Origin: Escherichia phage UFJF_EcSW4
Length of the DNA: 40,299 nucleotides
Sequence record: PP856269
Strand: one strand, 5' to 3'
Shown: piece by piece, positions 2,730 through 39,432 of the stretch
How the letters are laid out: each line of letters begins with the position of its first letter
Numbering within the stretch: the stretch's first letter is position 1
The notes under the pieces: model-generated
What the model was told of the DNA's origin: nothing
Databases searched by the model: none
Seen by the model: only the letters and a program-made list of their open reading frames with translations
Translations under genes and position numbers: made by a program

Positions 2730-2752
2730 ACTTAACTATCACTATAGGACTC
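2730..2752 (+). promoter_or_regulatory. Phage RNAP promoter (CTTAACTATCACTATAGGAC), immediately upstream of the RNAP gene
   Basis: Matches the 11-copy consensus (T/A)AACTATCACTATAGG; predicted +1 G at 2747. Confidence 0.7.
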
Positions 2753-2821
2753 AAGGTCTAAGACTCCAAGTGAAAGACCAAAGAGACTTTAAGTGAAAGA
2801 CTAATAACAAGGACTTTAAGT

Positions 2822-5503
2822 ATGAGCGTCATCTCTATTGATAAACACGACTTCTCTGATGTGTCTAACGCCATTGAGCCGTTTAACCTGCTGGCTGACC
2901 ACTACGGGCAAGACCTTGCAGTCAAACAGCTTCAGCTTGAGCATGAGGCATACACTGAAGGCGAGCGACGTTTCATCAAAAACCTTGAGCGACAGACTGA
3001 GCGCGGGGAACTGGCAGACAATCAGGTCGCCAAGCCTTTGATGCAGACTCTGGTTCCTAAGATTGCGCAAGCCGTCAAGGAGTGGCACGAAGGTCCAGAC
3101 GGGAAGCTGTCAACCTCACGTCCGAGCGTAGCGTTCACCATGTTAAGCACTGAAGAGAAGGCCGTTAAAGACCGCTCTCTACGCATCTCCTGTGAGTCTG
3201 CTGCGGTCATCATACTGAAGGTCATACTCTCCAAGCTGGTCAAGCCTGAAGGTATACCGATTACACCGATGGCCTCCGCGATAGGTCGCACACTTGAGGA
3301 TGAAATCCGATTCGGTCGCATTCGTGACAAGGAGAAGGAGCACTTCAAGAAGGCGATAGCTGAGAACTTGAACAAGCGAGCTGGGGCATCCTACAAGAAA
3401 GCCTACATGCAAGCGGTCGAGGCATCCATGCTGGAGCAAGGCCAACTGGAAGATGCGTGGGGGAATTGGAGTCCTACAGAGGCTGTCCACGTTGGCATCA
3501 AGATGCTTGAGATTATCATCCAGTCGACGCAACTGGTCGAGCTTAAGCGCTACGGTGCTGGCAATGCAGCGGCTGACGTTGAGATGGTCCACCTGTCAGA
3601 CTTCTGGGTCAAGAAGATGGCACAACGCGGCTTTAGCCTTGCGGGTATCGCCCCAGTCTACCAACCTTGCGTCGTTCCACCTAAGCCGTGGACTGGTGTC
3701 GTAGGCGGTGGGTACTGGGCCAAAGGTCGCAGACCTCTACCACTGATTCGCTTAGGGTCTAAGTCTGCGGTAGCACGTTACGAAGATGTGTATATGCCTG
3801 AAGTATATGACGCTGTTAACATCATCCAGAATACACCTTGGAAAGTAAACAAGAAGGTTCTGGACGTGGTGAACATGGTCGAGAAGTTGAACAACACGCC
3901 TATTGATGATATCCCTCAGATGGAGCCACTGAAGCCTGAAGACTATGCAGGTGAGACTGAAGAGGAACTCAAGGCATGGAAGAAGGCTGCTGCTGGTATC
4001 TACCGCCGAGAGAAGGCCCGGCAGTCACGTAGATTGTCACTGAGCTTTATCGTTAACCAAGCGAACAAGTTCTCTCAGTTCAAGGCCATCTGGTTCCCGT
4101 ACAACATGGACTGGCGCGGTCGCGTCTACGCTGTGCCGATGTTCAACCCTCAGGGTAACGACATGCAAAAGGGTCTCCTGACTCTGGCAGTCGGTAAGCC
4201 TATTGGTGCTGATGGTTTCAAATGGCTGAAGGTCCACGGTGCAAACTGTGCGGGTGTCGATAAAGTCACCTTCGAGGAGCGCATCAAGTGGGTGGAAGAC
4301 AACCACGACAACATCATGGCTGCTGCTAAGGCACCGATGGATAGCATTGAGTGGTGGGGCAAGTTAGACTCTCCTTTCTGCTTCCTTGCGTTCTGCTTCG
4401 AGTATGCTGGCGTGATGCACCACGGATTGTCTTACTCCTGCTCGCTGCCGATAGCATTCGATGGGTCCTGCTCTGGGATTCAGCACTTTAGCGCGATGCT
4501 TCGTGATCACATCGGTGGACATGCAGTAAACCTGACGCCTTCCGGTAAGGTCCAAGACATCTACCGCATCGTGTCTAACCGCATTGAGGAAGAGCTTAAA
4601 GTCCTGCTGGTTAACGGCACGGACAACGAGATGGTAACTCACGAGGACAAGAAAACTGGTGAGATTACCGAGCGTCTCAAGCTGGGGACACGAGAGCTGG
4701 CCCGTCAGTGGCTGACCTACGGTATGTCACGAAAGGTCACTAAGCGTTCGGTCATGACTCTGGCCTACGGGTCGAAAGAGTACGGCTTCGCAGACCAAGT
4801 TTACGAGGACATCGTGATGCCAGCGATTGACTCAGGGTCTGGCGCTATGTTCACTGAACCAAGCCAAGCATCTCGCTTCATGGCTAAGATGATTTGGGAA
4901 GCTGTGAGTGTGACCGTAGTTGCTGCGGTTGACGCGATGAAATGGCTTCAGGGTGCTGCCAAGCTGCTGGCGGCTGAAGTGAAGGACAAGAAGACGGGTG
5001 AAATCCTGAAGCCTTGCCTTCCGGTACATTGGGTCACACCTGATGGGTTCCCGGTCTGGCAGGAATACCGCAAGAAGGATACCACTCGTCTGAACCTGAT
5101 GTTCTTAGGGTCCTTCAACCTTCAACCTACCGTCAACAAAGGTACTAAGAAAGAGCTGGACAAGCACAAGCAGGAGTCAGGCATTAGCCCGAACTTCGTC
5201 CACTCACAAGATGGTAGCCACCTCCGCAAGACTGTAGTCCATACTCACCGCAAGTATGGCGTGATGTCGTTCGCAGTGATTCACGATAGCTTCGGGACCA
5301 TCCCGGCTGACGCTGAGTATCTGTTCCGTGGGGTCCGTGAGACTATGGTCGAGACATACCGCGACAACGATGTGCTGCTTGACTTCTACGAGCAGTTTGA
5401 ATACCAGCTTCACGAGAGCCAGCGCGATAAGTTGCCAGAGCTTCCGAAGAAAGGTAAACTGAATATCGAAGACATCTTGTCTTCAGACTTTGCATTCGCT
5501 TAA
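2822..5503 (+). CDS. 1: Single-subunit DNA-directed RNA polymerase (T7 RNAP family)
   Basis: 893 aa; blocks such as PFCFLAFCFEYAGV, SCSGIQHFSAMLRD, RSVMTLAYGSKE..., HDSFGTIPADA and the C-terminal FAFA match T7/T3 RNAP recalled from memory. Confidence 0.97.
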   Translation: MSVISIDKHDFSDVSNAIEPFNLLADHYGQDLAVKQLQLEHEAYTEGERRFIKNLERQTERGELADNQVAKPLMQTLVPKIAQAVKEWHEGPDGKLSTSRPSVAFTMLSTEEKAVKDRSLRISCESAAVIILKVILSKLVKPEGIPITPMASAIGRTLEDEIRFGRIRDKEKEHFKKAIAENLNKRAGASYKKAYMQAVEASMLEQGQLEDAWGNWSPTEAVHVGIKMLEIIIQSTQLVELKRYGAGNAAADVEMVHLSDFWVKKMAQRGFSLAGIAPVYQPCVVPPKPWTGVVGGGYWAKGRRPLPLIRLGSKSAVARYEDVYMPEVYDAVNIIQNTPWKVNKKVLDVVNMVEKLNNTPIDDIPQMEPLKPEDYAGETEEELKAWKKAAAGIYRREKARQSRRLSLSFIVNQANKFSQFKAIWFPYNMDWRGRVYAVPMFNPQGNDMQKGLLTLAVGKPIGADGFKWLKVHGANCAGVDKVTFEERIKWVEDNHDNIMAAAKAPMDSIEWWGKLDSPFCFLAFCFEYAGVMHHGLSYSCSLPIAFDGSCSGIQHFSAMLRDHIGGHAVNLTPSGKVQDIYRIVSNRIEEELKVLLVNGTDNEMVTHEDKKTGEITERLKLGTRELARQWLTYGMSRKVTKRSVMTLAYGSKEYGFADQVYEDIVMPAIDSGSGAMFTEPSQASRFMAKMIWEAVSVTVVAAVDAMKWLQGAAKLLAAEVKDKKTGEILKPCLPVHWVTPDGFPVWQEYRKKDTTRLNLMFLGSFNLQPTVNKGTKKELDKHKQESGISPNFVHSQDGSHLRKTVVHTHRKYGVMSFAVIHDSFGTIPADAEYLFRGVRETMVETYRDNDVLLDFYEQFEYQLHESQRDKLPELPKKGKLNIEDILSSDFAFA

Positions 5504-5517
5504 CAGGAGAGAGAGCT

Positions 5518-5733: not shown

Positions 5734-5807
5734 CAGACCTACAGTTACTGGCCTTGTGGCTAGGAGCACTCGCAGTATTCACTTTAATCCAACGCAGAAG
5801 AGGTTAA

Positions 5808-5830
5808 CCTAAACTATCACTATAGGATTA
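5808..5830 (+). promoter_or_regulatory. Phage RNAP promoter (phi1.1-position)
   Basis: CCTAAACTATCACTATAGGATTA; +1 at 5825. Confidence 0.75.
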
Positions 5831-5870
5831 GACTCAAGGTCATGACTCAACGTCGTGGCCTTCATGATTA
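5828..5870 (+). promoter_or_regulatory. Conserved RNA element, candidate RNase III processing site (R1.1-position)
   Basis: TTAGACTCAAGGTCAT-N-TGGCCTTCATGATTA; AAGGUCA (5836-5842) can pair with UGGCCUU (5856-5862) including one G-U; two further copies at 13355 and 37006. Confidence 0.4.
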
Positions 5871-5900
5871 ACCCTAATAAACTACTGGAGATTTAACCAT

Positions 5901-7463: not shown

Positions 7464-7500
7464 AACCCAGTGGTCTTAGGACTGCTGGGTTTCTTTGCTT
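7464..7500 (+). terminator. Intrinsic terminator after the ligase gene (TE-position)
   Basis: AACCCAGTGGTC ttag GACTGCTGGGTT: 12-bp stem with two G-U pairs and a tetraloop, followed by TTCTTTGCTT. Confidence 0.55.
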
Positions 7501-7536: not shown

Positions 7537-7559
7537 CCTAAGCTATCACTATAGGACAA
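7537..7559 (+). promoter_or_regulatory. Phage RNAP promoter
   Basis: CCTAAGCTATCACTATAGGACAA; +1 at 7554; one mismatch to the consensus. Confidence 0.65.
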
Positions 7560-8479: not shown

Positions 8480-8650
8480 ATGACTGACGTAGAAAAGAAG
8501 TACATCGTGGAGCTTGAGGGACGCGTTCAGTCCTTCGAGGTTCCGTTGTACGCAAAGTCTCTTGAAGAGGCTACCCTGAAGTCCCAAGAGTATGAGGACG
8601 CTGGTTTTGTGGTCGGACGGATTCGTCCTGAGACTAAACTATCACTGTAG
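8480..8650 (+). CDS. 2: gp2-like inhibitor of host RNA polymerase
   Basis: 56 aa from the internal ATG with SD ggaagga; [14 protein letters not shown]...[10 protein letters not shown] matches T7 gp2 (SFEVPIYAETLDEA...AGFEVTRVRP). The track ORF starts at 8402. Confidence 0.8.
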
Positions 8651-8656
8651 GACAGA
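8634..8656 (+). promoter_or_regulatory. Phage RNAP promoter variant (CACTGTAGG; phi2.5-position)
   Basis: CTAAACTATCACTGTAGGACAG with one A-to-G change in the conserved core; overlaps the last codons and TAG stop of gp2. Confidence 0.55.
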
Positions 8657-10277: not shown

Positions 10278-10498
10278 CTCAAGAAGTTAAGGTCGTTCGT
10301 AAGCGTCTGACCATTGATAAAATCCCGGTAGGCTATGCGTTTATCGTACACGGTAAGCCGGGTGAAGTGTACGTGAAGATTAGTAACTCTCACGTCTTCA
10401 ACCATAAGTTGCTCCAGATGCACACCACGGATGCTAACCGCTTCCAACGTCATCTGAACCTCGTAGCTGTAGAGCTGGTGGTGTACGATGGTGAGTAA
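10274..10498 (+). CDS. Hypothetical protein, 74 aa, between endonuclease I and the amidase
   Basis: ATG overlaps the gp3 stop (ATGA) and has an SD (aaaggag); T7 has no gene here. Confidence 0.5.
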   Translation: MTQEVKVVRKRLTIDKIPVGYAFIVHGKPGEVYVKISNSHVFNHKLLQMHTTDANRFQRHLNLVAVELVVYDGE

Positions 10499-10946
10499 GG
10501 TTCAGTTCAACCCACGGTCCCGCACTGACGCTATCTTCGTTCACTGTTCGGCTACAAAGCCAGATATGGACATCGGGGTAGAGACCATCCGTATGTGGCA
10601 CAAGCAGCAAGGCTGGCTGGACGTAGGCTACCACTTTATAATCAAGCGCGATGGTACTGTGGAAGAGGGTCGCCAGGTCAATGTCGTAGGGTCCCACGTT
10701 AAGGACTGGAACTCACTGTCTGTAGGCGTCTGCCTTGTAGGTGGAGTTGACGCTAAGGGCAAGTTTGAAGCTAACTTCACTCCAGCCCAGATGAACTCCC
10801 TGCGCAACAAGCTGGCTGACCTGAAAGTCCTGTATCCTCAGGCAGAAATCAAAGCACACCATGACGTAGCACCTAAGGCGTGTCCAAGTTTTGACTTGCA
10901 ACGCTGGCTGTCTACCAACGAACTGGTCACTTCCGACCGTGGTTAA
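10488..10946 (+). CDS. 3.5: N-acetylmuramoyl-L-alanine amidase (T7 lysozyme family)
   Basis: TDAIFVHCSATKP, WLDVGYHFIIKRDGTVEEGR, HHDVAPKACPSFDL and the C-terminal NELVTSDRG match T7 gp3.5. Confidence 0.95.
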   Translation: MVSKVQFNPRSRTDAIFVHCSATKPDMDIGVETIRMWHKQQGWLDVGYHFIIKRDGTVEEGRQVNVVGSHVKDWNSLSVGVCLVGGVDAKGKFEANFTPAQMNSLRNKLADLKVLYPQAEIKAHHDVAPKACPSFDLQRWLSTNELVTSDRG

Positions 10947-10970: not shown

Positions 10971-11186
10971 ATGATTAAACTTATCGAATTTCTTGGTCGT
11001 CTGGTGGTGCGTGGCTATCGTCGTGCTGCGGTTCTGGAACGAAAGGTAGAAAAGAAGACTGCTGACGGTGCGGCTGATGCTGCTGCTCTGGCTGACAAGC
11101 TGACCATCGCGTCACTGGAAGCTGGCATGAAGGCACGTCAGGCTGACACCAAGGCTGACCAGTTGTCTCAGTTCTTCAAAGACTAA
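10971..11186 (+). CDS. Hypothetical protein, 71 aa
   Basis: ORF with SD (aagggagaatagctca ATG); its stop TAA lies inside the following promoter. Confidence 0.5.
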   Translation: MIKLIEFLGRLVVRGYRRAAVLERKVEKKTADGAADAAALADKLTIASLEAGMKARQADTKADQLSQFFKD

Positions 11187-11204
11187 ACTATCACCTTAGG
11201 GATG
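11182..11204 (+). promoter_or_regulatory. Phage RNAP promoter variant (CACCTTAGG; gene 4 promoter position)
   Basis: ACTAAACTATCACCTTAGGGATG; two mismatches in the -4/-3 region, so probably weaker. Confidence 0.45.
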
Positions 11205-11254: not shown

Positions 11255-11434
11255 ATGGTTACAGTTATTCTAGTTCTAACGCTTATCAGTGGTAGTGGGC
11301 AAACTATCAGCCAAGTACCTATAACAGCACCAACATTACAGGACGCATTCACAATATGTGACCAGTCCGGCTCAAAGTGGGCCGACAAGTTTGGCGATGT
11401 CTCAAACGTTGCAGCAGGGTATGAGTGTATTTAA
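11255..11434 (+). CDS. Possible small protein, 59 aa, hydrophobic N-terminus
   Basis: MVTVILVLTLISGSG...; preceded by TAAGGAGTGACCG ATG, almost the same 13-nt SD context that precedes the primase gene at 11445. Confidence 0.35.
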   Translation: MVTVILVLTLISGSGQTISQVPITAPTLQDAFTICDQSGSKWADKFGDVSNVAAGYECI

Positions 11435-11441: not shown

Positions 11442-13145
<1,704 letters not shown>

Positions 13146-13420: not shown

Positions 13421-13852
13421 ATGAGGACTTGTAGTAGATGTGGCTATACAAAGGAGTCCACTGAGTTCAGGAAGACAAATGGGTGGTGCATATCCTGTGT
13501 TCGTGAGGATAATAGGTCGCGATATCATCGAAACAAAGGTACAGAGGCCGGTGAGGCACATCGCCTATCTGCCCGTAAGTCTTGGCTTAAGAAAGCCTAT
13601 GGTCTCACACTTGAGGAATATGACACTATGTTCGATAGTCAAAAGGGCAGATGCGCTATATGCTCAGACATTATCTTCAAGCATGGGTCTATTGAGAGTA
13701 AGAATAATGTAGCCCACGTTGACCATTGCCATGACTCAGGTATTGTTAGGGGATTGCTATGTGGTACATGTAATAGCGCACTTGGTAAGTTCGGTGACAA
13801 GTTAGCCGTGCTTAGGGCTGCTATAGCGTACTTGGAGAAATATAATGTTTAA
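13421..13852 (+). CDS. Endonuclease VII-type (HNH superfamily) nuclease
   Basis: 143 aa with CxxC...HVDHCH...GLLCGTCNSALG, the zinc/His-Me signature of the T4 endonuclease VII family. Confidence 0.75.
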   Translation: MRTCSRCGYTKESTEFRKTNGWCISCVREDNRSRYHRNKGTEAGEAHRLSARKSWLKKAYGLTLEEYDTMFDSQKGRCAICSDIIFKHGSIESKNNVAHVDHCHDSGIVRGLLCGTCNSALGKFGDKLAVLRAAIAYLEKYNV

Positions 13853-16016
13853 TCTCAACTCAATCTATGGCACAGATATAGAGACTGACGGTCTACTAGA
13901 CACTGTGTCACAGTTCCATTGTGGTGTTATCATTAACGCTGGAACTCAGGCTACTGAGAAATATGGTGTTGCCCCTATGACTGGGCTGACAGGTGGATTC
14001 AAAGAGTACATAGACCGCATAGAATCTATTATGGCATCCACTGACGGTATGCTGGTTCTGCACAATGGTGTGAACTATGATATACCAGCCTTGAAAATAC
14101 TGAAGAAGAAATACTTTGGTAAGAACCTAAATGTGAATAAGGGTCGAATTATTGATACCTTGGTGCTGGGGCGCTTGATGTATCCAAACATTAAGTTCTC
14201 AGACATGGGCGCAGTGAAATCGGGTCGTCTGCCACCTAGTATGATGGGACGTCAGTCTCTTGAGGCTTGGGGCTATCGTCTTGGTGAGATGAAGGGTGAG
14301 TACAAACACGATTACGTTGCCAAGTGCAAGGCCGAAGGTATAGAATATAAGGCTGGGGACGAATGGTTGTTCCCGTCTCAGGAGATGCTGGACTATAACG
14401 TTCAAGACGTTGTGGTCACACTGGCGTTGTTCAAGAAGTTCCTGACTGACAAGTATTACTTCCAGTCTGAACAGTTCGCTTTCGACCAGATTTATGCGTT
14501 GCGTCTGGAACATGATGCTGCGTGGACCTGTGCGAAGATGGAACGTAACGGCTATCCGATGAACACCGAGATGGTCGAAGGTTTATATCGTGAACTCACC
14601 GTCAAACGTGCAGAGCTGCTGGACAAGCTGCGTTCGACTTTCGGCAGCTGGTACGCACCAAAGGGAGGCAAGGAGTTCTTCAAGCACCCACGGACAGGCA
14701 AGGACCTTCCGAAGTATCCGCGCGTCGTGTATCCTAAGGTCGGGTCAGTATTCAAGAAGCCGAAGAACAAAGCTCAACGCTTAGGTCTGGAGCCTTGCGA
14801 GTTCGACTCACGAGACACGATGGAGGGAGCGCCGTTCACACCTATCACTTACGTTGAGTTTAATCCGGGAAGCGGGGACCACTTAGCGAAAGTTCTGATG
14901 GAGCGTGGTTGGGAGCCTGTTGACTTCACTGACACTGGGAAACCTGTAGTCGATGACGAGACGTTAGAACACGTTAAGTTACCAGACGCAGAGGCTCAGG
15001 CTTGCGTAGAGCTGGTCCGTGAGTATCTGGTAGTCCAGAAGCGCATCGGTCAGGCGGCTGAAGGTAAGAACGCATGGTTGAAACTTGTAGGTCCAGACGG
15101 ACGTATGCACGGTTCAATCAACCCTTGTGGAGCAGTAACCGGACGTGCGACCCATAGTTCACCAAACATGGCTCAGGTCCCGGCTAACGGTGCTCCATAT
15201 GGTGAGACTTGCCGTGGTGCTTTCGGTGCAGCGTGGAACAAGAAGGACGGTAAGCCAGACCCTTGGATTCAAGTGGGAGTGGATGCTTCAGGTCTTGAGC
15301 TTCGTTGTCTGGGGAACCGAGCGGCTCCGTTTGATGGTGGCGCCTATGCGAAGACTGTGGTCGAAGGTGACATCCACTGGGCCAACGCAGTCAACGCTGG
15401 GTTAGCACCTAACGTCCCACGCGATAAGTCCAGCCACGACCATGATGCTTTCCGTAACAACGCTAAGACGTTCATCTATGCGTTCCTGTATGGTGCAGGG
15501 GCCGCTAAGATTGGACTGATAGTCGGCGGTGGTAAGAAGGAAGGTTCAGCTCTCATGAAGAAATTCATTGAGGGTACACCAGCCATAAAAGACCTCAGGG
15601 AAGCTGTGAGTAAGACGTTAATCTCTGAGTCCAAATGGGTAGACGGTGAGAATATCGTGAAGTGGAAACGCCGCTGGCTTAAAGGCTTGGATGGTCGACG
15701 CATCCACATCCGGTCTCCACACTCAGCACTTAACGCCTTACTTCAGGGTGACGGTGCGGTAGTCTGTAAGCACTGGATGGTACTGACTGAGAAGAAACTT
15801 GAAGAGGCTGGTTACGGTAACGGATGGGACGGCGACTTTGCGCTAATGGCTTGGATTCACGATGAATTGCAGATAGCGTGCCGTACTCAGGAGATAGCAG
15901 AAGATGTCGTCCGTATCGCTCAAGAGGCGATGCGCGAGGTCGGACGCTTCTATAACTTCAAGTGTGACCTTGATACGGAGGGTAAGATTGGACCAACGTG
16001 GAAAGAGTGTCATTGA
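13845..16016 (+). CDS. 5: DNA polymerase (family A, with 3'-5' exonuclease domain)
   Basis: 723 aa; FHCGVI, LEAWGYRLGEMKGEYK, DYNVQDVVVT, GAVTGRATHSSPNMAQVP, DASGLELRCLG, NAKTFIYAFLYGAG, HDELQ match T7 gp5; the frame is contiguous with no intein or intron. Confidence 0.97.
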   Translation: MFNLNSIYGTDIETDGLLDTVSQFHCGVIINAGTQATEKYGVAPMTGLTGGFKEYIDRIESIMASTDGMLVLHNGVNYDIPALKILKKKYFGKNLNVNKGRIIDTLVLGRLMYPNIKFSDMGAVKSGRLPPSMMGRQSLEAWGYRLGEMKGEYKHDYVAKCKAEGIEYKAGDEWLFPSQEMLDYNVQDVVVTLALFKKFLTDKYYFQSEQFAFDQIYALRLEHDAAWTCAKMERNGYPMNTEMVEGLYRELTVKRAELLDKLRSTFGSWYAPKGGKEFFKHPRTGKDLPKYPRVVYPKVGSVFKKPKNKAQRLGLEPCEFDSRDTMEGAPFTPITYVEFNPGSGDHLAKVLMERGWEPVDFTDTGKPVVDDETLEHVKLPDAEAQACVELVREYLVVQKRIGQAAEGKNAWLKLVGPDGRMHGSINPCGAVTGRATHSSPNMAQVPANGAPYGETCRGAFGAAWNKKDGKPDPWIQVGVDASGLELRCLGNRAAPFDGGAYAKTVVEGDIHWANAVNAGLAPNVPRDKSSHDHDAFRNNAKTFIYAFLYGAGAAKIGLIVGGGKKEGSALMKKFIEGTPAIKDLREAVSKTLISESKWVDGENIVKWKRRWLKGLDGRRIHIRSPHSALNALLQGDGAVVCKHWMVLTEKKLEEAGYGNGWDGDFALMAWIHDELQIACRTQEIAEDVVRIAQEAMREVGRFYNFKCDLDTEGKIGPTWKECH

Positions 16017-16047
16017 CCCTCGAACCCAGACCCTACGCTTCCACACC

Positions 16048-16329
16048 ATGCCTACCGGATGTATCGTCTGCGTGTCCCACAAGAGGAACCAAGATGGGTA
16101 CTTCCGGTACTCCATGGGAAGTTACAGGAAGGGCAACAAGTTCGCCTTCATGTTCCACCGATGGGTGTGGGAGCAGAAGCGCGGACCTATACCAAATGGC
16201 TACGAAATAGACCATTTGTGCTTGAACCGTGGGTGCTGCAACATAGAGCATCTACAGTGTATTCCAAAACGCGAACACGTCATTAAGACGAACCGTGAGC
16301 GCAAACTTGTTAAGAAGGAGTGTCACTAA
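16048..16329 (+). CDS. HNH homing-endonuclease-like protein (gene 5.3 position)
   Basis: From the first ATG after the polymerase stop: GCIVCVSHKRNQDGYFRY...HRWVWEQKRGPIPNGYEIDHLCLNRGCCNIEHLQCIPKREHV. The open frame continues upstream to 15904, overlapping the polymerase 3' end. Confidence 0.7.
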   Translation: MPTGCIVCVSHKRNQDGYFRYSMGSYRKGNKFAFMFHRWVWEQKRGPIPNGYEIDHLCLNRGCCNIEHLQCIPKREHVIKTNRERKLVKKECH

Positions 16330-18414: not shown

Positions 18415-18437
18415 ACTAAACTATCACTATAGGGACT
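18415..18437 (+). promoter_or_regulatory. Phage RNAP promoter (phi6.5-position)
   Basis: CACTAAACTATCACTATAGGGACTT; +1 at 18432. Confidence 0.75.
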
Positions 18438-18498
18438 TTAGGACCTAAGATATGACTATAAGATAGACTTTAGTCTTAACTTAAAGAGGAGATTCAAG

Positions 18499-19671: not shown

Positions 19672-21240
19672 ATGGCTGAACGTGAAGGGTTCGCTGCTGA
19701 AGGAGCCAAAGCGGTCTATGACCGACTGAAGAACGGTAGACAGCCATATGAGACACGCGCTCAGAACTGTGCTGCTGTCACTATCCCATCACTATTTCCT
19801 AAGGAGTCCGACAACTCGTCTACTGAGTACACCACTCCGTGGCAAGCTGTGGGTGCTCGCTGCTTGAACAACTTGGCTGCAAAGCTGATGTTGGCATTAT
19901 TCCCTCAGTCACCGTGGATGCGACTGACAGTCTCCGAATATGAGGCAAAGACCTTGAGTCAGGACTCAGAGGCGGCTGCTCGTGTTGATGAAGGGCTGGC
20001 TATGGTCGAGCGTGTGTTGATGGCTTACATGGAGACTAACAGTTTCCGTGTCCCATTATTCGAGGCGCTGAAGCAGCTTATAGTCTCCGGTAACTGTCTG
20101 CTCTACATTCCAGAGCCTGAACAGGGAACCTACAGTCCCATGCGAATGTACCGCTTAGTGTCTTACGTTGTTCAACGTGATGCGTTCGGTAATATCTTGC
20201 AGATTGTGACTCTCGACAAGGTAGCGTTTAGTGCTCTACCGGAAGACGTGAAGTCTCAACTCAACGCAGACGACTATGAGCCTGACACCGAGCTTGAAGT
20301 GTATACGCACATCTACCGTCAGGACGACGAGTATCTGCGCTACGAGGAGGTGGAAGGCATTGAGGTGACAGGGACCGATGGTTCCTACCCGCTGACTGCA
20401 TGTCCATACATCCCGGTACGAATGGTTCGACTGGATGGTGAAGACTACGGTCGTTCTTACTGCGAGGAGTATCTGGGAGACCTGAACTCGCTGGAGACGA
20501 TTACAGAAGCTATCACTAAAATGGCTAAGGTAGCCTCCAAGGTGATTGGCCTCGTTAACCCGAACGGTATCACGCAACCTCGACGTCTGAACAAGGCGGC
20601 TACAGGTGAGTTCGTGGCTGGTCGCGTTGAGGACATCAACTTCCTGCAACTGACGAAAGGTCAGGACTTTACGATTGCTAAGTCGGTGGCTGACGCTATC
20701 GAGCAACGTTTAGGCTGGGCCTTCCTTCTTAATAGTGCTGTTCAGCGTAATGCCGAGCGAGTCACTGCCGAAGAGATTCGTTATGTTGCTGGCGAACTGG
20801 AGGCGACCTTAGGTGGCGTGTACTCAGTACAGTCACAAGAGCTTCAGTTACCTATCGTCCGTGTACTGATGAACCAACTTCAGTCTGCTGGCATGATTCC
20901 TGACCTTCCGAAAGAAGCGGTAGAGCCTACGGTCTCCACTGGTCTGGAAGCTCTGGGCCGTGGTCAGGACTTGGAGAAGCTGACTCAGGCGGTTAACATG
21001 ATGACAGGTCTTCAGCCGCTATCTCAGGACCCGGACATCAACTTGCCGACCCTTAAGCTGCGACTCCTGAACGCTCTGGGCATCGACACCGCTGGCCTAC
21101 TCCTGACGCAAGACGAGAAGATTCAGCGCATGGCTGAGCAGTCGTCTCAACAGGCAGTTGTCCAAGGTGCTAGTGCTGCTGGTGCTAACATGGGGGCTGC
21201 TGTAGGTCAAGGAGCTGGTGAGGACATGGCTCAAGCCTAA
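19672..21240 (+). CDS. 8: Portal (head-to-tail connector) protein
   Basis: YETRAQNCA, TPWQAVGAR, YRLVSYVVQRDAFGN, CPYIPVRMVRLDGEDYGRSY, GLVNPNGITQPRRL, RVTAEEIRYVAGELE match T7 gp8. Confidence 0.97.
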   Translation: MAEREGFAAEGAKAVYDRLKNGRQPYETRAQNCAAVTIPSLFPKESDNSSTEYTTPWQAVGARCLNNLAAKLMLALFPQSPWMRLTVSEYEAKTLSQDSEAAARVDEGLAMVERVLMAYMETNSFRVPLFEALKQLIVSGNCLLYIPEPEQGTYSPMRMYRLVSYVVQRDAFGNILQIVTLDKVAFSALPEDVKSQLNADDYEPDTELEVYTHIYRQDDEYLRYEEVEGIEVTGTDGSYPLTACPYIPVRMVRLDGEDYGRSYCEEYLGDLNSLETITEAITKMAKVASKVIGLVNPNGITQPRRLNKAATGEFVAGRVEDINFLQLTKGQDFTIAKSVADAIEQRLGWAFLLNSAVQRNAERVTAEEIRYVAGELEATLGGVYSVQSQELQLPIVRVLMNQLQSAGMIPDLPKEAVEPTVSTGLEALGRGQDLEKLTQAVNMMTGLQPLSQDPDINLPTLKLRLLNALGIDTAGLLLTQDEKIQRMAEQSSQQAVVQGASAAGANMGAAVGQGAGEDMAQA

Positions 21241-21258
21241 ACTATCACTATAGGAACA
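21236..21258 (+). promoter_or_regulatory. Phage RNAP promoter (phi9-position)
   Basis: CCTAAACTATCACTATAGGAACA; the portal stop TAA is the TAA of the promoter. Confidence 0.75.
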
Positions 21259-22231: not shown

Positions 22232-22254
22232 ACTAAACTATCACTATAGGGAGA
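22232..22254 (+). promoter_or_regulatory. Phage RNAP promoter (phi10-position; full TATAGGGAGA initiation region)
   Basis: ACTAAACTATCACTATAGGGAGACC; +1 at 22249; the closest match to a strong class III promoter. Confidence 0.85.
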
Positions 22255-22356
22255 CCAAGAGAAAGACTCAAGGTTTCCCTATTACTTCAGTCCATACGGA
22301 TTGGGCGTACAGTAAGTAATAAACTTTATCTTTCAATTGAATAGGAGAATTATCAT

Positions 22357-23669: not shown

Positions 23670-23673
23670 TTGA

Positions 23674-23713
23674 AACCCCTTGGGTGCCTTCGGGTGCTTG
23701 AGGGGTTTTTTTG
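23674..23713 (+). terminator. Tphi-like transcription terminator
   Basis: AACCCCT tgggtgccttcgggtgcttg AGGGGTT then TTTTTTG; same architecture and location (after the capsid gene) as T7 Tphi. Confidence 0.8.
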
Positions 23714-23817: not shown

Positions 23818-23829
23818 GGAGTAAAACCT

Positions 23830-24396
23830 ATGGCTCAATACATTCCACTGAATGCTAACGATGACTTAGATGCCATCAACGATATGTTAGCAGCTATCGG
23901 TGAACCAGCAGTCCTACAGCTTGATGAAGGCAATGCTGACGTCTCGAATGCTCAACGCATCCTGCATCGTGTCAATCGTCAGGTCCAAGCTAAGGGATGG
24001 AACTTTAACATTAATGAAGCTGCTGTCCTGACACCTGATGTCCAAGACAACAGGATTCGATTCCTGCCGTCATACCTTCGTGTAATGACTGCCGGGGCCA
24101 CCAGCTACTACAGCAACATGGGTGGATACCTGTACGACCTGTCCACTCAGTCAACCACTTTCACCGACCCTATAACGGTAGAGCTTGTTGAGATGAAACC
24201 GTTCTCTGAGATGCCTGTGGTATTCAGGGATTACATCGTTACCAAGGCCAGCCGTGAGTTCAACGCTAAGTTCTTCGGTAGCCCAGAGTCTGAACTGTAC
24301 CTTCGTGAGCAGGAAGCAGAACTCTATCAGCAGGTCATGGAATACGAGATGGACACTGGTCGCTACAACATGATGTCCGACATCGGGAGGGACTAA
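23830..24396 (+). CDS. 11: Tail tubular protein A
   Basis: INDMLAAIGEP, NAQRILHRVNRQVQAKGWNFNI, GGYLYDLSTQS, FRDYIVTKASREFNAKFFG, MEYEMD match T7 gp11. Confidence 0.95.
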   Translation: MAQYIPLNANDDLDAINDMLAAIGEPAVLQLDEGNADVSNAQRILHRVNRQVQAKGWNFNINEAAVLTPDVQDNRIRFLPSYLRVMTAGATSYYSNMGGYLYDLSTQSTTFTDPITVELVEMKPFSEMPVVFRDYIVTKASREFNAKFFGSPESELYLREQEAELYQQVMEYEMDTGRYNMMSDIGRD

Positions 24397-24623
24397 TGGC
24401 TAGTCACAACCTGAAGATTCACCGCCAACACTTTGGTCCGGTACAACTAGGTCTAAAGACAGCAGAGCTGAGACTTAACGACCGTGACTTTAAGGTTGGC
24501 GACTGGCTTATCCTGAATGAGTGGGACAACGGGTATACTGGACAACAGGTAGCACGTAAGGTTGTCCACATTGATGACGTTGGTGACATCGCTGAGGGAT
24601 ACGTCCTAATGAGTATGATTTAA
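24396..24623 (+). CDS. DUF3850/ASCH-like small protein inserted between tail tubular genes
   Basis: 75 aa; H.LKIHRQHF.....GLKTAELRLNDRDFKVGDWLILNEW...YTG...GYVLMS fits the DUF3850 (ASCH/PUA-like) pattern as I recall it; ATG overlaps the gp11 stop (TAATG) with GGGAGGG upstream. Confidence 0.6.
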   Translation: MASHNLKIHRQHFGPVQLGLKTAELRLNDRDFKVGDWLILNEWDNGYTGQQVARKVVHIDDVGDIAEGYVLMSMI

Positions 24624-27014: not shown

Positions 27015-27037
27015 CCTTAACTATCACTATAGGGACT
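27015..27037 (+). promoter_or_regulatory. Phage RNAP promoter (phi13-position)
   Basis: CCTTAACTATCACTATAGGGACT; +1 at 27032. Confidence 0.75.
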
Positions 27038-33400: not shown

Positions 33401-34295
33401 GTTCGATGACCGCTGGCTTAAGACCGCTGGTATCTCTGACGAGCAGTGGAAGGGAATTAAGTCCCTCATCCGTGAGTCAGTGACGCGTGGTCCAGACGGG
33501 AAGTATACCATCAAGGATAAGAAGGCGTTCAGTCAGGACCCAAGGGCTATGGACCTGTGGCGTATTGGTGATACCATCGCTGACGAAACGTTACTCCGGC
33601 CCCACAAGCTGTCCAACATGGACGCCAAGGCTTATGGTCCTCTCGCTAAGACTGTCCTTCAGTTTAAGAACTTCGTTATCAAGTCTATCAACGGTCGAAC
33701 CATGCGTACCTTCTACAACGCCACCAAGAACAACCGAGCTATGGATGCTGCACTGTCCACGGTTATGTCTATGGGTCTGGCTGGGATGTACTACATGGCT
33801 CAGGCGCACATCAAGGCTTACGCTATGCAGGACGGTCGTGACCGTGAGTACCTGAAGCAAGCCCTGAACCCGACGATGATTGGCTATGCGGCCCTGTCCC
33901 GTAGTTCACATCTAGGTGGACCACTTGGGGTCGCTAACATTCTTGGTGGTATCGCTGGGTATGAGGACACTAAGATGCTCCGTTCGTCTATCCTCCCGCG
34001 TTCACCTACAGAGAAGCCCGAACGTGCCATCTCATATGGTGCGGCTACAAGTGACCCTGTGATGAATGTCGTTGGTAACTTCTTGGAGCAGGTCCCGGCT
34101 TTCGGCTATGCTGCTAACGTTGGCGCTTCGGCATACAACTTGGCTGGCTACCTCAAGGCTGATACCCGTGTCAACGAGCGAGACTACATGACCGGGATGT
34201 ATAACACGTTCCGTGAACTTGTACCGAATGACCCGATTACCCAGAAGTTGCTGCTTGGGACGTTTGAGGAGCAAGGCATCCACATCAAGGACTAA
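30408..34295 (+). CDS. 16: Internal virion (core) protein gp16 with a divergent, non-SLT N-terminal module
   Basis: From about residue 200 onward matches T7 gp16 (TRWN.H.W..EELD.IR, VITGGSPQNL, GVDPLTYVPIAG, RLEARETARN, VRSPTGMQSGASGK, GTYVPHVY, LRPHK...); the first ~180 aa (MATRGIRNNNPGNIR...) lack the T7 lytic-transglycosylase motifs. Start at the ATG with AAGGAG at spacing 8; the track ORF starts at a TTG at 30390. Confidence 0.93.
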   Translation: MATRGIRNNNPGNIRVSKDQWEGMTGDDGAFVTFDSPESGVRALGKNLLSYGRQGYDSIEKIINRWAPPNENDTKAYIDSVVAATGIPATQSLDLSDTDTLSSLAQAISFHETGSRYDPEVYQKGVARALNGISPKTPPVSANVFDALTEGLKAKPKVALGENLPTAAGMNIEGQAPEAPNESFGEMFYKATGETMQEREGRSTWFGFGAATEAEVKNSMVGVAIRAGQTEDSLDVIGDVFNPTRWNNHKWSREELDQIRNAGVLPQYYGVITGGSPQNLTELINLALENQKLDQEKAKAGTGAQLAAGVIGAGVDPLTYVPIAGQVGKGGKLVNKMFTVAAQSGALAGASEIARTSVAGGDAHVAEAIMGGALFGGGMTAIGDAIGKALGKTTNEFAGPATRLEARETARNVDGQDLSRMPIREGEQTFSHQGVKFADVPNEPGSVRLEDGSILIGENPLNPKTRQVFDEVIEPERAAAGVNLGGLTEIGLKLLRSENPEIRGVAADLVRSPTGMQSGASGKIGTTASDVFERLRAVDHRFYNDIDDAVTEALKDPYFQTAFWRDSGAFRQDIYQRVSMAIEDGSGNLKAELTPGELKVYDLLKNQFDAKREMMENPAMFGRQDAQSIFPGSRFKGTYVPHVYSNQMKELYIKELGSPEALQEAIKKSWLTSYASRPEVKKRVDEALLEADPTLTPEGLAAAVDKYANDKAYGISHTEQFERSSVMEENINGLVGLENNSFLEARNLFDSDMSIVLPNGQTFSVNNLREWDMDKIVPAYNRRVNGDIAIMAGTGKTTKDMKDLVETMMNKAGDDGKLKGEVSTLRDTLKILTGRARRDGADDAAFATVMRTMTDLSFFAKNAYMGVQNLTEIGGMLARGNVRALLHGVPIFRDLAFRNKKVGASEIKDLHNVIFGKELDDSIRPSKQDVIDRLRSYSDLGRGTATALGTAKYYTGELAVRSPFTKVLNGTTNYLLDAGRQGFLSDIVEHSLTGSKRKFDDRWLKTAGISDEQWKGIKSLIRESVTRGPDGKYTIKDKKAFSQDPRAMDLWRIGDTIADETLLRPHKLSNMDAKAYGPLAKTVLQFKNFVIKSINGRTMRTFYNATKNNRAMDAALSTVMSMGLAGMYYMAQAHIKAYAMQDGRDREYLKQALNPTMIGYAALSRSSHLGGPLGVANILGGIAGYEDTKMLRSSILPRSPTEKPERAISYGAATSDPVMNVVGNFLEQVPAFGYAANVGASAYNLAGYLKADTRVNERDYMTGMYNTFRELVPNDPITQKLLLGTFEEQGIHIKD

Positions 34296-34313
34296 ACTAT
34301 CACTATAGGAAAC
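34291..34313 (+). promoter_or_regulatory. Phage RNAP promoter (phi17-position)
   Basis: ACTAAACTATCACTATAGGAAAC; the gp16 stop TAA is inside it. Confidence 0.75.
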
Positions 34314-34360: not shown

Positions 34361-36391
34361 ATGTCCACGATTACACAATTCCCTTCAGGAAGCACTCAGT
34401 ACAGGATTGAGTTCGACTACCTAGCCAGAACGTTTGTTGTTGTTACGCTGGTGAATAGCTCTAACCCTACCCTGAACCGTGTACTGGAAGTTGGTCGAGA
34501 TTACCGATTCCTTAATCCAACGATGATTGAGATGTTGGTTGACCAATCAGGTTTCGACATCGTTCGCATTCACCGTCAGACTGGAACTGACTTAGTGGTA
34601 GACTTCAGGAATGGCTCAGTGTTGACAGCTAGTGACCTGACAAATTCAGAGCTTCAGGCTATCCATATTGCAGAAGAAGGTAGAGACCAAACGGTTGACT
34701 TAGCGAAGGAATATGCCGATGCTGCTGGTAGCTCTGCTGGCAACGCTAAGGATAGCGAGGACGAAGCACGACGAATCGCTGAGAGTATCAGGGAGGCTGG
34801 TCTAATTGGTTATATTACCCGTCGCTCCTTCGAGAAAGGCTACAACGTTACAACATGGAGCGAGGTCCTGCTATGGGAAGAGGATGGTGATTATTACCGC
34901 TGGGATGGTACGCTTCCAAAGAACGTTCCTGCTGGTTCAACTCCTGAAACTTCCGGTGGGATTGGATTAGGTGCGTGGGTTAGTGTTGGTGATGCTGCTT
35001 TAAGAAGTCAGATTTCAAACCCGGAAGGGGCAATACTCTACCCAGAATTACAGATGGCACGCTGGCGAGATGAGGGCGATGTTCGCGGATGGGGTGCTAA
35101 AGGTGATGGTTCTGCGGATGATACAGAGGCTTTCAAGGCAGCACTGGCAACAGGAAAGAATCTATATATCCCCGTTGGTATATACATCATTAAAGAGACT
35201 TTGTACTTTAAGAACCAAGTTATTAAAGGTGGGGGAATATCTCCATCACCAAGTCTTGGTACAATCCTAGCAATCTCTCACAATGAAGCAGCTTTTAAGT
35301 ATGACGTTAACTCTGGATACTCCATGGGTGGCTACTTAGGCGGTTTCTTCATTGATTATGGTGAGAACAAGCCAGACAACTATGGTGGTCGCAAAGGTAT
35401 TGATATTGGTGATGCATCGCAGACAGTATGGCCTTCACAATTTATCATTGAGAACATCATAGTACGTGGTGCGTACTTTGGTATTCATGACGTGACAGGG
35501 GCTTTTCAGTATACCATGCGTAACGTATTGGCGATTAATTGCTGGGAAGGTTTCCGTAAGCATATTGGTACTACAGTCCTAATGGATACATGCTACGCAC
35601 TTAATTGTTATCAGGCGTTCAATTTTGCAAACGTGTACAACATGACTATGAACAATTGTGCAATGGACGGCTGTAATGATATACAAGGTCTACAGGCTTT
35701 TGATATTAACAACTGTAAAGGTATGGTAATAAATGGCATGTACAGCGAGAACTGTGAGATTCATCATAATGGACATGCCTCTATATATATTCATGGGGAC
35801 TCAACAGTAACACTTAACGGATATGCACTACATTCCCACAAAGTTCTGGCTAGTTCTGGGGAGGCTTACTTCTTACGAGCACATGAAAGTTCTCGCGTTA
35901 CTGTTGATGGTATCTTCTTCGGGGAAGACCTGACGTCTACTGCTGTATTCATGTACCCAGTCCTGTCTTCTGGGGATGCTAGAGTTCAGCTTGGAACTAC
36001 TAGATTGAAGTTGTGGACTGGTGCTACGGGTGGCGCGTCACTGGCTGCACTAGGTAACAGTTTGATTGAGTATGACAACACAGTCTTTGTTCCAACAGTC
36101 ACGGTCGGATGGTGTAGCAACAACGGAGTTGTAGCCAAAGGTACTCTTGCAGTTAACACTACGCTTGAACCAGGTGCTGACCTGAATGCTGGTAATATCA
36201 CCCTCACTGGTGACTACAAGCCAACTAAGGGGGATGTGCTTGTGTATGGTGCTACCTTTGATGTTAAGTCATGTTCAATTATTCTCAAGCCAATAGGGGA
36301 GAATTTATGTAATGTGTACATTAAGAACTTAAGTGCAGGTGGTAGTGCTACTCTTCTTGGTGACTTGATGGTACAGGCCATCCGACGCTAG
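34361..36391 (+). CDS. 17: Tailspike/tail fiber: T7 gp17-like N-terminal adaptor plus pectate-lyase-type beta-helix (putative polysaccharide depolymerase) domain
   Basis: N-terminus (YRIEFDYLARTFVVVTL...DYRFLN...LVVDFRNGSVLTASDL...AIHIAEEGRD) matches the T7 gp17 N-terminal domain; from about residue 240 GWGAKGDGSADDTEAFKAAL...LYIPVGIY is the classic start of a right-handed beta-helix glycanase. Confidence 0.9.
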   Translation: MSTITQFPSGSTQYRIEFDYLARTFVVVTLVNSSNPTLNRVLEVGRDYRFLNPTMIEMLVDQSGFDIVRIHRQTGTDLVVDFRNGSVLTASDLTNSELQAIHIAEEGRDQTVDLAKEYADAAGSSAGNAKDSEDEARRIAESIREAGLIGYITRRSFEKGYNVTTWSEVLLWEEDGDYYRWDGTLPKNVPAGSTPETSGGIGLGAWVSVGDAALRSQISNPEGAILYPELQMARWRDEGDVRGWGAKGDGSADDTEAFKAALATGKNLYIPVGIYIIKETLYFKNQVIKGGGISPSPSLGTILAISHNEAAFKYDVNSGYSMGGYLGGFFIDYGENKPDNYGGRKGIDIGDASQTVWPSQFIIENIIVRGAYFGIHDVTGAFQYTMRNVLAINCWEGFRKHIGTTVLMDTCYALNCYQAFNFANVYNMTMNNCAMDGCNDIQGLQAFDINNCKGMVINGMYSENCEIHHNGHASIYIHGDSTVTLNGYALHSHKVLASSGEAYFLRAHESSRVTVDGIFFGEDLTSTAVFMYPVLSSGDARVQLGTTRLKLWTGATGGASLAALGNSLIEYDNTVFVPTVTVGWCSNNGVVAKGTLAVNTTLEPGADLNAGNITLTGDYKPTKGDVLVYGATFDVKSCSIILKPIGENLCNVYIKNLSAGGSATLLGDLMVQAIRR

Positions 36392-36744: not shown

Positions 36745-37004
36745 CGCAGATGGACTTAGAGAAGTTCCTATTGATGCTTGATACTGAGCGTGCTCGACTT
36801 ATGCTGCAAGACTTGCGGGATGACACTAAGCGTTCACCTCAACTCTACAACGCCATTGAGAAGCTACTGGCTCGTCACAACTTTGTGTTAAGCAAGGTGT
36901 CTGTTGACGAGAAGACGCTCGCTGATATGGAGGCCCTGAACGCAGAGTACGATAAGGTGCTCTCCGCTACGGAAGATAATGACACCGGGTATGGTGTTCA
37001 GTAA
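36741..37004 (+). CDS. 18: Terminase small subunit (DNA maturation protein A)
   Basis: FLLMLDTERARLMLQDL...RSPQLYNAIEKLLARHNF matches T7 gp18. Confidence 0.88.
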   Translation: MTQMDLEKFLLMLDTERARLMLQDLRDDTKRSPQLYNAIEKLLARHNFVLSKVSVDEKTLADMEALNAEYDKVLSATEDNDTGYGVQ

Positions 37005-37005
37005 G

Positions 37006-37050
37006 TGTTAGACTCAAGGTCATTACTATATGTAGTGGCCTTTATGGTTA
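37006..37050 (+). promoter_or_regulatory. Conserved RNA element, candidate RNase III processing site (R18.5-position)
   Basis: TTAGACTCAAGGTCATTACTATATGTAGTGGCCTTTATGGTTAA; third copy of the element at 5828 and 13355. Confidence 0.4.
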
Positions 37051-37105
37051 ACACTAACTAGTGGAGGAGACTCTACGTGAAATCTGATAAACCGGGAGGG
37101 CAACT

Positions 37106-37555: not shown

Positions 37556-39315
37556 GTAAAGATTTAGTGGCGCGTCAGGCGCTAATGACTGCCCGTATGA
37601 AGGCAGACTTCGTGTTCTTCCTGTTCGTCCTGTGGAAAGCTCTGTCACTACCAGTCCCGACTCGCTGTCAGATTGACATGGCGAAGAAACTATCGGCTGG
37701 GGACAACAGGCGTTTCATCCTACAGGCGTTCCGTGGTATCGGGAAGTCATTCATTACGTGCGCATTCGTGGTATGGAAACTGTGGAACAACCCAGACTTG
37801 AAGTTCATGATTGTGTCGGCCTCAAAGGAACGAGCCGATGCAAACTCCATCTTCATCAAGCGAATCATCGACCTCATGCCTCAGCTTCGGGAACTCAAAC
37901 CTAAGCAGGGGCAGCGAGATGCGGTTATCAGCTTCGACGTTGGACCAGCCAAGCCAGACCACTCACCTTCGGTTAAGTCCGTTGGTATCACTGGTCAGTT
38001 GACTGGTAGTCGTGCTGACATCCTGATTGCCGATGACGTGGAGGTTCCGAACAACTCAGCGACTCAGGCTGCCAGAGACCGTCTGTCAGAGCTTGTGAAA
38101 GAGTTCGACGCTATCCTGAAGCCGGGAGGTACAATCATCTATCTGGGTACTCCTCAGAACGAGATGACCTTGTATCGTGAGCTGGAAGGCCGTGGGTACA
38201 CCACTACTATCTGGCCTGCTCGTTATCCACGCGACAGGAAGGACTGGCAGTCTTACGGCGACCGTCTGGCTCCAATGCTTCAGGCAGAGCTTGAAGAGGA
38301 CCCTGAGTCATTCTACTGGCGTCCGACTGATGAAGTACGCTTCGATGATACGGACCTTAAGGAACGTGAGCTGTCATATGGTAAGGCTGGCTTCGCTCTA
38401 CAGTTCATGCTTAACCCGAACCTGAGTGATGCCGAGAAGTACCCACTGAAGCTCCGTGACCTTATCGTAGCGGACTTGGACCCAGCGTCCAGCCCAATGG
38501 TCTACCAATGGTTACCGAACCCTCAGAACAAGCGTGAGGACGTTCCTAACGTTGGACTCATGGGTGACTCGTACCACACGTATCAGACTGTAGGTTCTGC
38601 CTTCAGCTCATACACCCAGAAGATTCTGGTCATTGATCCTAGTGGCCGTGGTAAGGATGAAACTGGCTATGCGGTACTGTACCAGCTTAATGGCTACATC
38701 TTCGCTATGGAAGTTGGTGGTATGCGTGGTGGTTATGAAGACTCTACGCTTGAAGCACTGGCTAAGATTGGTCGTAAGTGGAAGGTCAACGAATACGTCA
38801 TTGAGGGTAACTTCGGTGATGGTATGTACCTTGAGCTATTCAAGCCTGTAGCGGCCCGTATCCATCCTGCTGCTGTAACTGAAGTGAAGAGTAAGGGTCA
38901 GAAAGAACTCCGCATCTGTGACGTTCTGGAGCCTATCATGGGGTCTCACCGACTTATCGTTAACGCTGCTGCTATCGTTCAAGACTACCAGTCAGCCTCT
39001 GATAAGGATGGTGTTCGTAACCCTATCTACTCTCTCTTCTACCAGATGACACGTATATCTCGTGAACGTGGAGCCTTGGCACACGATGACCGACTTGATG
39101 CGCTGGCTATCGGTGTACAGTTCTTCGTTGAGTCTATGGCGAAGGATGCCAACAAAGGCGAACGTGAAGTCACTGAGGAGTGGTTGGAAGAACAGACGGA
39201 GAACCCACGTAAAGGCTTCGAGTCAATCCACACGGAGTTCTGGGACAATGGGGTCCGGGTAACTCACGATACGGACGACGAGCTGGGACTAGGGTCCTAC
39301 GTTACGTTCCACTAG
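37552..39315 (+). CDS. 19: Terminase large subunit (DNA maturation protein B)
   Basis: [123 protein letters not shown] match T7 gp19. Likely TTG start overlapping the spanin stop with TAAGGAGG at spacing 7; first in-frame ATG is at 37585. Confidence 0.95.
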
Positions 39316-39409
39316 CTGAATGAATAACTATAGGCGAAAACTGAATTAATAAGCAGTTAGTAACCTATAGTTACTACCAGTCTAACCTACTGTTTTACAA
39401 TGAGTTTGG

Positions 39410-39432
39410 ACTTAACTATCACTATAGGGAAG
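39410..39432 (+). promoter_or_regulatory. Phage RNAP promoter (phiOR-position, right end)
   Basis: ACTTAACTATCACTATAGGGAAGACC; +1 at 39427. Confidence 0.75.

Follow-up and report, generated by a model that had tools for sequence, protein, structure and literature searches.

K1F-like promoters and the phage-encoded RNA polymerase of Escherichia phage UFJF_EcSW4

Described K1F-like systems and the UFJF_EcSW4 genome

The genus Kayfunavirus (K1F-like phages of Studiervirinae, the subfamily of T7) provides the closest described systems for the subject of this study, a set of eleven repeated elements and a single-subunit RNA polymerase (RNAP) in the genome of Escherichia phage UFJF_EcSW4 (record PP856269; 40,299 nucleotides (nt), the whole of which is referred to as the window). 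The RefSeq record of phage EcoDS1 (NC_011042) annotates 11 'phi' promoters at the same boundaries as those described below (before genes 1, 1.1, 1.6, 2.5, 4, 6.5, 9, 10, 13 and 17, and at OR) together with host promoters, the early terminator TE and the late terminator, and the record of phage Ro45lw annotates six of the 11. The GenBank and RefSeq records of K1F itself (NC_007456, AM084414) carry no promoter features, but the same 11 sites are present in K1F with the same three variant copies. In the work of Temme et al., the K1F specificity loop (T7 Q744-I761) was grafted into T7 RNAP and positions -12 to -7 of the T7 promoter were swapped for the K1F-subfamily consensus, giving a 17-fold induction and a pair reported to be orthogonal to the T7, T3 and N4 pairs (PMC3458549). 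The PK1F promoter derived from that work was used by Segall-Shapiro et al. (PMC4299498), and a K1F cluster forms part of a residue-base specificity network (PMC11880802). More directly, the native Ro45lw polymerase has been purified and shown in vitro to start at a G as +1, with ACTTAACTATCACTATAGGGA as minimal promoter (PMC12272871), while CTWAACTATCACTATAGG, the same 18-base-pair (bp) consensus, is printed as the promoter repeat of another Kayfunavirus (PMC13298934). The promoter class, the polymerase, the link between loop and promoter and the eleven-site layout are all already known, and since they are on record the finding in UFJF_EcSW4 is an ordinary one.

The window covers a linear phage genome in full, bounded by a 286-bp direct terminal repeat (1-286 identical to 40014-40299), with 93-97% nucleotide identity to Kayfunavirus genomes, Escherichia phage Vec13 being the closest, and with a gene order as in T7 and K1F. 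Compared with K1F, its tailspike is no endosialidase, its DNA polymerase gene is uninterrupted and an insertion with an open reading frame (ORF) of 59 amino acids (aa) lies before gene 4, but the promoter-polymerase system itself is without difference. The eleven elements are almost certainly K1F-like (Kayfunavirus) promoters read by the phage's own single-subunit RNAP, encoded at 2822-5503.

The eleven promoter elements

The window was searched for AACTATCACTATAGG with up to three mismatches, the chance level being taken from 100 shuffles. Eleven matches were found, all on the plus strand and at gene boundaries, compared with a mean of 0.98 and a maximum of four matches in the shuffled sequences (0/100 reached 11). 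The initial annotation, made from the letters of the sequence, had listed eleven copies of a distinct phage promoter, a count that holds against a chance expectation of about one; ten of its eleven start positions are exact and the other, given as 8634, should read 8633. With the first G of the GG numbered +1, as in T7, each 23-bp element runs from -17 to +6 and the consensus across the 11 sites is (A/C)CT(A/T)AACTATCACTATAGG(G/A)A, with G or A at +3 and mostly A at +4. C-16 and T-15 are invariant in the position weight matrix built from the sites, and C-11, T-10 and A-9 are kept in all of them. The matrix scores its own sites at 34.6-42.4 bits, with the next best match on either strand at 12.7 bits and the rest at or below 1.2 bits, so that the whole-sequence scan proposed in the initial annotation sets the 11 sites far apart from the runner-up and leaves no hidden twelfth strong copy. 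Summed by hand over -17 to +4, the per-position information comes to about 36 bits, compared with the roughly 12.8 bits sufficient to pick 11 sites in a genome of this size. The runner-up itself, CCTAAGATATGACTATAAGATAG at 18444-18466 (+1 at about 18461), was rejected as an extra promoter, having G at -7 and A at +1; this degenerate promoter-like sequence lies 29 nt downstream of phi6.5 and is also kept in K1F and EcoDS1. A scan of the whole window against Rfam at gathering thresholds gave no matches.

The exact core TCACTATAGG (-8 to +2), which is the same as in T7, is found in eight of the 11 copies, the other three being altered at -12, -3 or -4/-3: the copy at 7537 has G at -12, that at 8633 (CACTGTAGG) has G at -3 and that at 11182 (CACCTTAGG) has C at -4 and T at -3. 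The last two had been recognised as natural variants, but the number was put at two, the copy at 7537 having been overlooked. Similarly, the difference from T7 had been located correctly at -11 to -9 (CTA as against GAC in T7), but it extends to -12, where the window has A in place of C (ACTA as against CGAC over -12 to -9), to -17 to -15, where (A/C)CT stands in place of TAA, and to a remodelled N-terminal loop of the polymerase (see below). From -12 to -8 ten copies read ACTAT and one GCTAT, in agreement with K1F, EcoDS1 and Ro45lw. The window reads ACTATC from -12 to -7, which we take to be the sequence of PK1F, although the text of the paper on the loop graft gives only 'subfamily consensus'. 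The likeness to T7 lies in the 23-bp architecture, the -8 to +2 core, the start site, the presence of counterparts of TE and Tphi and the placing of off-consensus copies in the class II region. The T7 consensus TAATACGACTCACTATAGG is not found in the window within three mismatches, nor is the window motif found in T7. The elements combine the core and the ACTAT binding region with a K1F-type loop in the same genome and a co-oriented placement at boundaries syntenic with annotated promoters, all of which mark the K1F class. The marks of the T7 class (CGACT at -12 to -8, TAATA at -17 to -13 and R756) are absent, as are those of the T3 class (ACCCT at -12 to -8 and D748), in place of which the window has ACTAT and N748.

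The first site, the gene 1 promoter (ACTTAACTATCACTATAGGACTC, 2730-2752, +1 at 2747), stands 75 nt before the ATG of the RNAP gene and is syntenic with a 'promoter phi' of EcoDS1. It is followed after gene 1 by the equivalent of phi1.1 (CCTAAACTATCACTATAGGATTA, 5808-5830, +1 at 5825), annotated in both EcoDS1 and Ro45lw, the upstream flank of which differs between relatives while the sequence from -16 on is invariant. The three variant copies come next. phi1.6 (CCTAAGCTATCACTATAGGACAA, 7537-7559, +1 at 7554) lies just past the early terminator and has the same -12 G in K1F, EcoDS1 and Ro45lw; phi2.5 (8633-8655, +1 at 8650) overlaps the end of gene 2 (its last codons and TAG stop) and keeps its -3 G in K1F, EcoDS1, Ro45lw and Cronobacter phage GW1; and the promoter before the primase/helicase gene, gene 4 (11182-11204, +1 at 11199), is the same variant in K1F and EcoDS1. 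Further on lie phi6.5 (18415-18437, +1 at 18432), which has the consensus sequence and is so labelled in EcoDS1 and Ro45lw; phi9 (21236-21258, +1 at 21253), overlapping the portal gene at its stop codon; phi10, ahead of the major capsid gene (22232-22254, +1 at 22249), the sole copy with a full T7-like GGGAGA start; phi13 (27015-27037, +1 at 27032); phi17, before the tailspike gene (34291-34313, +1 at 34308), overlapping the stop codon of gene 16; and, near the right end, phiOR (39410-39432, +1 at 39427), which contains the exact minimal Ro45lw promoter at 39410-39430. The EcoDS1 promoter sequences are the same as those of the window or differ only at -17 or -18. A twelfth promoter of the CACTGTAGG type before the DNA polymerase gene (gene 5) is found in Ro45lw (12445-12467 of locus L087) and GW1 (23823-23837 of locus L085) and is absent in the window, K1F and EcoDS1.

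None of the 11 sites lies inside a plus-strand ORF of at least 100 aa, and four overlap only the last codons or stop of the upstream gene (gene 2, a small ORF before gene 4, gene 8 and gene 16). At ten sites a start codon with a purine-rich Shine-Dalgarno-like motif follows 32-108 nt past +1, and at phiOR it follows after 180 nt. Ten of the sites correspond gene for gene to the mapped T7 promoters phi1.1, 1.6, 2.5, 3.8/4, 6.5, 9, 10, 13, 17 and OR, the eleventh being the one upstream of gene 1. T7 has 17 promoters and none upstream of gene 1, whereas the window has 11, lacks phiOL and has one in that place.

Upstream of the gene 1 promoter (2697-2729) and of phiOR (39377-39409), flanks of 33 nt match at 21 positions by hand count, and with the promoter included a program gives 77% identity over 52 nt. 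This similarity is common to K1F and EcoDS1 but not to Ro45lw or GW1, and on account of its absence from the latter two a functional element was rejected; past recombination between promoters probably left it behind. Such a relic, together with the position of the elements at module boundaries, could be taken to mean that the repeats are some other dispersed signal, such as targets of recombination or of homing endonucleases, replication or packaging signals or RNA processing sites, and some T7 promoters do double as replication origins. Against this, the core and the start site are those of T7 promoters, all copies are oriented with the genes and precede ribosome-binding sites, the positions are those of the mapped T7 promoters and a polymerase 94% identical to that of the window initiates on this sequence in vitro, which together leave such a signal a negligible probability.

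A second possibility is that the sites are promoters of the host sigma-70 polymerase. TATAGG does loosely resemble a -10 hexamer, and one sigma-70-like match on the minus strand (22271-22243) overlaps phi10, but a consensus scan found a plus-strand -35/-10 pair at none of the 11 sites, the conserved block is 19-21 bp long without a spacer, unlike a sigma-70 promoter, and the phage encodes an inhibitor of the host polymerase. The chance that the host enzyme reads these sites as its own is put at next to nothing, and they are treated below as promoters of the phage enzyme.

The phi10 leader folds as a 5' stem-loop (z = -3.2 for the whole leader) and the phi10 transcript begins with the stem-loop GGGAGACC...GGUUUCCC (22249-22279), similar to the 5' hairpin in the leader of T7 gene 10. 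No better folding than that of shuffled sequences was seen for the leaders of phi6.5, the gene 1 promoter and phiOR (z = 0.0, -0.5 and -1.4 respectively).

The RNA polymerase and its recognition loops

Gene 1 (2822-5503, plus strand) encodes a single-subunit T7-like RNAP of 893 aa with the Pfam domains PF00940 (RNA_pol, E = 1.2e-106) and PF14700 (RPOL_N), which is 99.2% identical to the K1F enzyme and 64% identical to that of T7. Residues 1-893 match T7 RNAP structures over their full length, including the promoter complex 1cez, and the catalytic residues D537, D812, K631, Y639 and H784 (T7 numbering) are kept; the domains, the full-length match and these residues place the protein in the T7-like single-subunit RNAP family. 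The specificity loop TTRLNLMFLGSFNLQPTV (5081-5134, plus strand; residues 754-771, corresponding to T7 Q744-I761) is identical to that of K1F and differs from that of T7 by Q744T, Q754S, R756N and I761V, so that the inspection of loop residues proposed in the initial annotation yields R756N as one of four changes. Residues R756, N758, N766 and Q768 of the window enzyme occupy the positions of T7 R746, N748, R756 and Q758, and all but T7 R756 are unchanged. In the structure of 1999, T7 R756 reportedly pairs with the G opposite C-9, and an Asn at this position fits the A at -9 of the window promoters. The base-specific hydrogen bonds of the T7 promoter complex come from the side chains of R746, N748, R756 and Q758 (PMC11880802).

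The association of loop and promoter was examined in a sample of 80 IMG/VR loci around polymerase homologues together with reference genomes, grouped by the residues at T7 positions 746/748/756/758 before the promoter-like sites of each group were read. The promoter sequence from -12 to -8 was ACTAT in the K1F type (R/N/N/Q), CGACT in the T7 type (R/N/R/Q), ACCCT in the T3 type (R/D/R/Q), GGTAG in a group without a name (R/K/N/F) and GGACA or GGGCA in the K11 type (R/K/N/K), so that the type of loop tracks the promoter from -12 to -8 across the 80 loci. In the 19 loci with a K1F-type loop the early promoters have variable flanks around a stretch, -16 to +6, that is invariant or nearly so, and a fixed block amid such flanks is the footprint of selection. 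The Ro45lw enzyme (loci L011 and L087) is 94.4% identical to that of the window and has the same R/N/N/Q contacts, M750L (T7 numbering), in the loop, being among its 50 aa differences.

The clearest comparison within the genus is GW1 (loci L039 and L085), the RNAP of which is 89% identical to that of the window but carries a loop with D748 and R756, as in T3. GW1 has 12 promoters, 11 of them syntenic with those of the window, with AACCCT in place of AACTAT, and at most promoters the first transcribed bases equal or resemble those of the window, phi2.5 sharing the -3 G. Since GW1 has switched both within one genus, as has locus L017, the loop and all the promoters of a genome change together.

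A further difference lies in the N-terminal recognition loop WHEGPDGKLSTSRPSVAF (3083-3136, plus strand), the counterpart of the AT-rich recognition loop of T7 and identical to that of K1F. It reads EGPDGKLSTSRPSV, with a two-residue insertion and without the RGK(R/K)P motif, which every other group has. Where the motif is kept, -17 to -13 is AT-rich (TAATA, AATTA or ATTAA), and the K1F-type groups have (A/C)CT(A/T)A. In GW1, and also in locus L017, an N-terminal loop of T7 length goes with T at -16, where the window has C. Because the type of N-terminal loop covaries with the -17 to -13 sequence, comparison of the loops suggests that specificity is probably set by two recognition modules rather than one.

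The initial annotation had concluded from the promoters that the phage has an RNAP with its own specificity, and this is upheld by the presence of the polymerase in the window, its K1F-identical loop, the lack of mutual matches with T7 and the published K1F-graft and Ro45lw experiments. Alternatively, the sites could be promoters served by an enzyme without a specificity of its own, this polymerase reading T7-type and K1F-type promoters alike and the change at -12 to -9 being neutral drift. Such an explanation could draw on the T7 core at -8 to +2, the retention of three of the four contacts (R746, N748 and Q758) and some cross-reactivity reported both for loop-graft enzymes and for T7 RNAP on other phage promoters. 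Drift would not, however, hold 11 dispersed copies identical at C-11, T-10 and A-9, as is found here and likewise in K1F, EcoDS1 and Ro45lw; moreover, loop and -12 to -8 sequence covary over the 80 loci and switch jointly in GW1, and the K1F-loop graft was reported to be orthogonal to T7 (PMC3458549). Neutral drift is therefore considered very improbable, and the elements are best read as promoters specific to the K1F-type polymerase encoded beside them. In addition to the sites, their positions, the polymerase with its loop and the covariation observed among relatives, that reading has behind it the demonstration of initiation at +1 and of loop-dependent specificity with near-identical enzymes, in vitro with that of Ro45lw and in vivo with the T7(K1F) graft.

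Several points weigh against it. N748 is shared with T7 even though the bases at -11 and -10 are not (CT as against GA), and therefore a rule of one residue for one base explains the specificity incompletely. The loop-graft pairs are only partly orthogonal, with sizeable non-cognate activity (PMC11880802). The starts at +1 and the discrimination between promoters are known from the enzymes of relatives and would apply to this genome by extension, and the strength of the variant copies and the class II/III timing would follow the example of T7 only.

A proposed transcription programme and other features

By analogy with T7, the host RNA polymerase would start at two sigma-70-type promoters found at about 519 and 830 and transcribe the early genes, gene 1 included, as far as the equivalent of TE at 7464-7491 (plus strand), a 12-bp stem located between the ligase gene and phi1.6 that matches a sequence annotated as TE in EcoDS1. 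The new polymerase would then bind the 23-bp elements, the beta-hairpin specificity loop reading -12 to -7 in the major groove and the N-terminal loop reading approximately -17 to -13, whereupon the TATA at -4 to -1 would melt and transcription start at the G at +1. The R756N change, with its loop context, would lead to the reading of ACTAT at -12 to -8 in place of CGACT. The late terminator, the equivalent of Tphi, lies at 23672-23709 (plus strand) and consists of a 17-bp stem and T run after the capsid gene, syntenic with terminators annotated in T7, EcoDS1 and Ro45lw.

Meanwhile the host enzyme would be blocked by the product of gene 2 (gp2; 8480-8650, plus strand), a host RNA polymerase inhibitor that falls in Pfam PF16857 (RNA_pol_inhib) and aligns with K1F and T7 gp2. 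Relative to K1F, gene 2 has a 1-bp deletion (8633-8650) by which the TAA stop is lost, such that gp2 is four residues (KLSL) longer and terminates at a TAG made up of positions -2 to +1 of phi2.5. Gene 3.5 (10488-10946, plus strand) encodes an amidase/lysozyme identified by the Pfam domain Amidase_2 and by synteny with K1F gene 3.5. The T7 gene 3.5 protein also binds and down-regulates the phage RNAP, and by this analogy gp3.5 may modulate the phage polymerase here.

In this scheme the off-consensus phi1.6, phi2.5 and gene 4 promoter would serve the region of DNA metabolism and the exact-consensus copies would drive the structural genes, following the class II/III layout of T7. The initial annotation had suggested that variant copies may be weaker, which is plausible by comparison with T7: the variants are found where the genome holds its early and DNA-metabolism genes, like the off-consensus class II promoters of T7, and are conserved across the genus. 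Since they are conserved across species they would be tuned rather than defective promoters. The gene 1 promoter, 75 nt upstream, would let the polymerase amplify its own gene. We infer the relative promoter strengths, the timing and this feedback loop by analogy.

The gene 1 upstream promoter was found in all 22 Kayfunavirus-like loci with a placeable gene 1 start (loci L003-L022, L015, L017 and L039), 75-87 nt upstream of the gene, with a -12 to -8 sequence that matches the specificity of each locus's own polymerase (ACTAT, ACCCT or AGGTA), and in none of 55 T7-, T3- and K11-like loci within 400 nt. This distribution suggests a genus-specific self-amplifying loop. The pairing of the N-terminal loop with C-16/T-15 and the genus-wide gene 1 promoter are unstated in the literature examined, and may be described elsewhere, for example in the K1F genome papers. 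Taken jointly, the second recognition module (the remodelled N-terminal loop with C-16/T-15) and the genus-specific self-amplifying loop at gene 1 are put forward tentatively, as an unlikely combination.

The genome has several other features of note. Two 50-nt segments, 5828-5877 and 37008-37057, are 84% identical and form strong hairpins (z = -2.7 and -4.75 respectively); they occupy what we take to be the places of the T7 RNase III sites R1.1 and R18.5 and are probably processing sites. Compared with K1F, about 190 bp have been inserted ahead of gene 4, downstream of its promoter (11255-11434); the insertion holds the 59-aa ORF with a hydrophobic N-terminus and has the ribosome-binding sequence TAAGGAGTGACC duplicated on both flanks; a Pfam search with the ORF gave no matches. 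The tailspike (34361-36391) joins the N-terminal domain of the T7 tail to a pectate-lyase-like beta-helix, in place of the endosialidase of K1F. Extra genes encode an endonuclease VII (13421-13852), an HNH endonuclease, the ORF of which overlaps the 3' end of the DNA polymerase gene (15904-16329), and a DUF3850/ASCH protein (24396-24623).

At the ends of the genome, the terminal repeat holds an exact two-copy tandem duplication with a unit of 127 bp (21-276 and 40034-40289). The 286 bp of the repeat compare with 178 bp in EcoDS1 and 190 bp in Ro45lw, and the duplication could be either a genuine expansion or an artefact of assembly. A 15-bp tandem repeat (ACTACCTACAGTCTA, 2.9 copies) at 319-361, immediately inward of the left terminal repeat, is similar to the terminal tandem repeats, likewise of 15 bp, that have been reported for phage Sparklingdew.

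For the biology of these phages the promoter system of UFJF_EcSW4 adds nothing new, the K1F pair being a published synthetic-biology part, the layout being in RefSeq and a near-identical native enzyme having been characterised in vitro. Its practical value is limited to the annotation of this genome, which gains 11 promoters, two terminators and the polymerase. What the analysis does confirm is that the raw sequence suffices for a careful reader to recover the transcription programme of such a phage and to infer that its polymerase has a private specificity.

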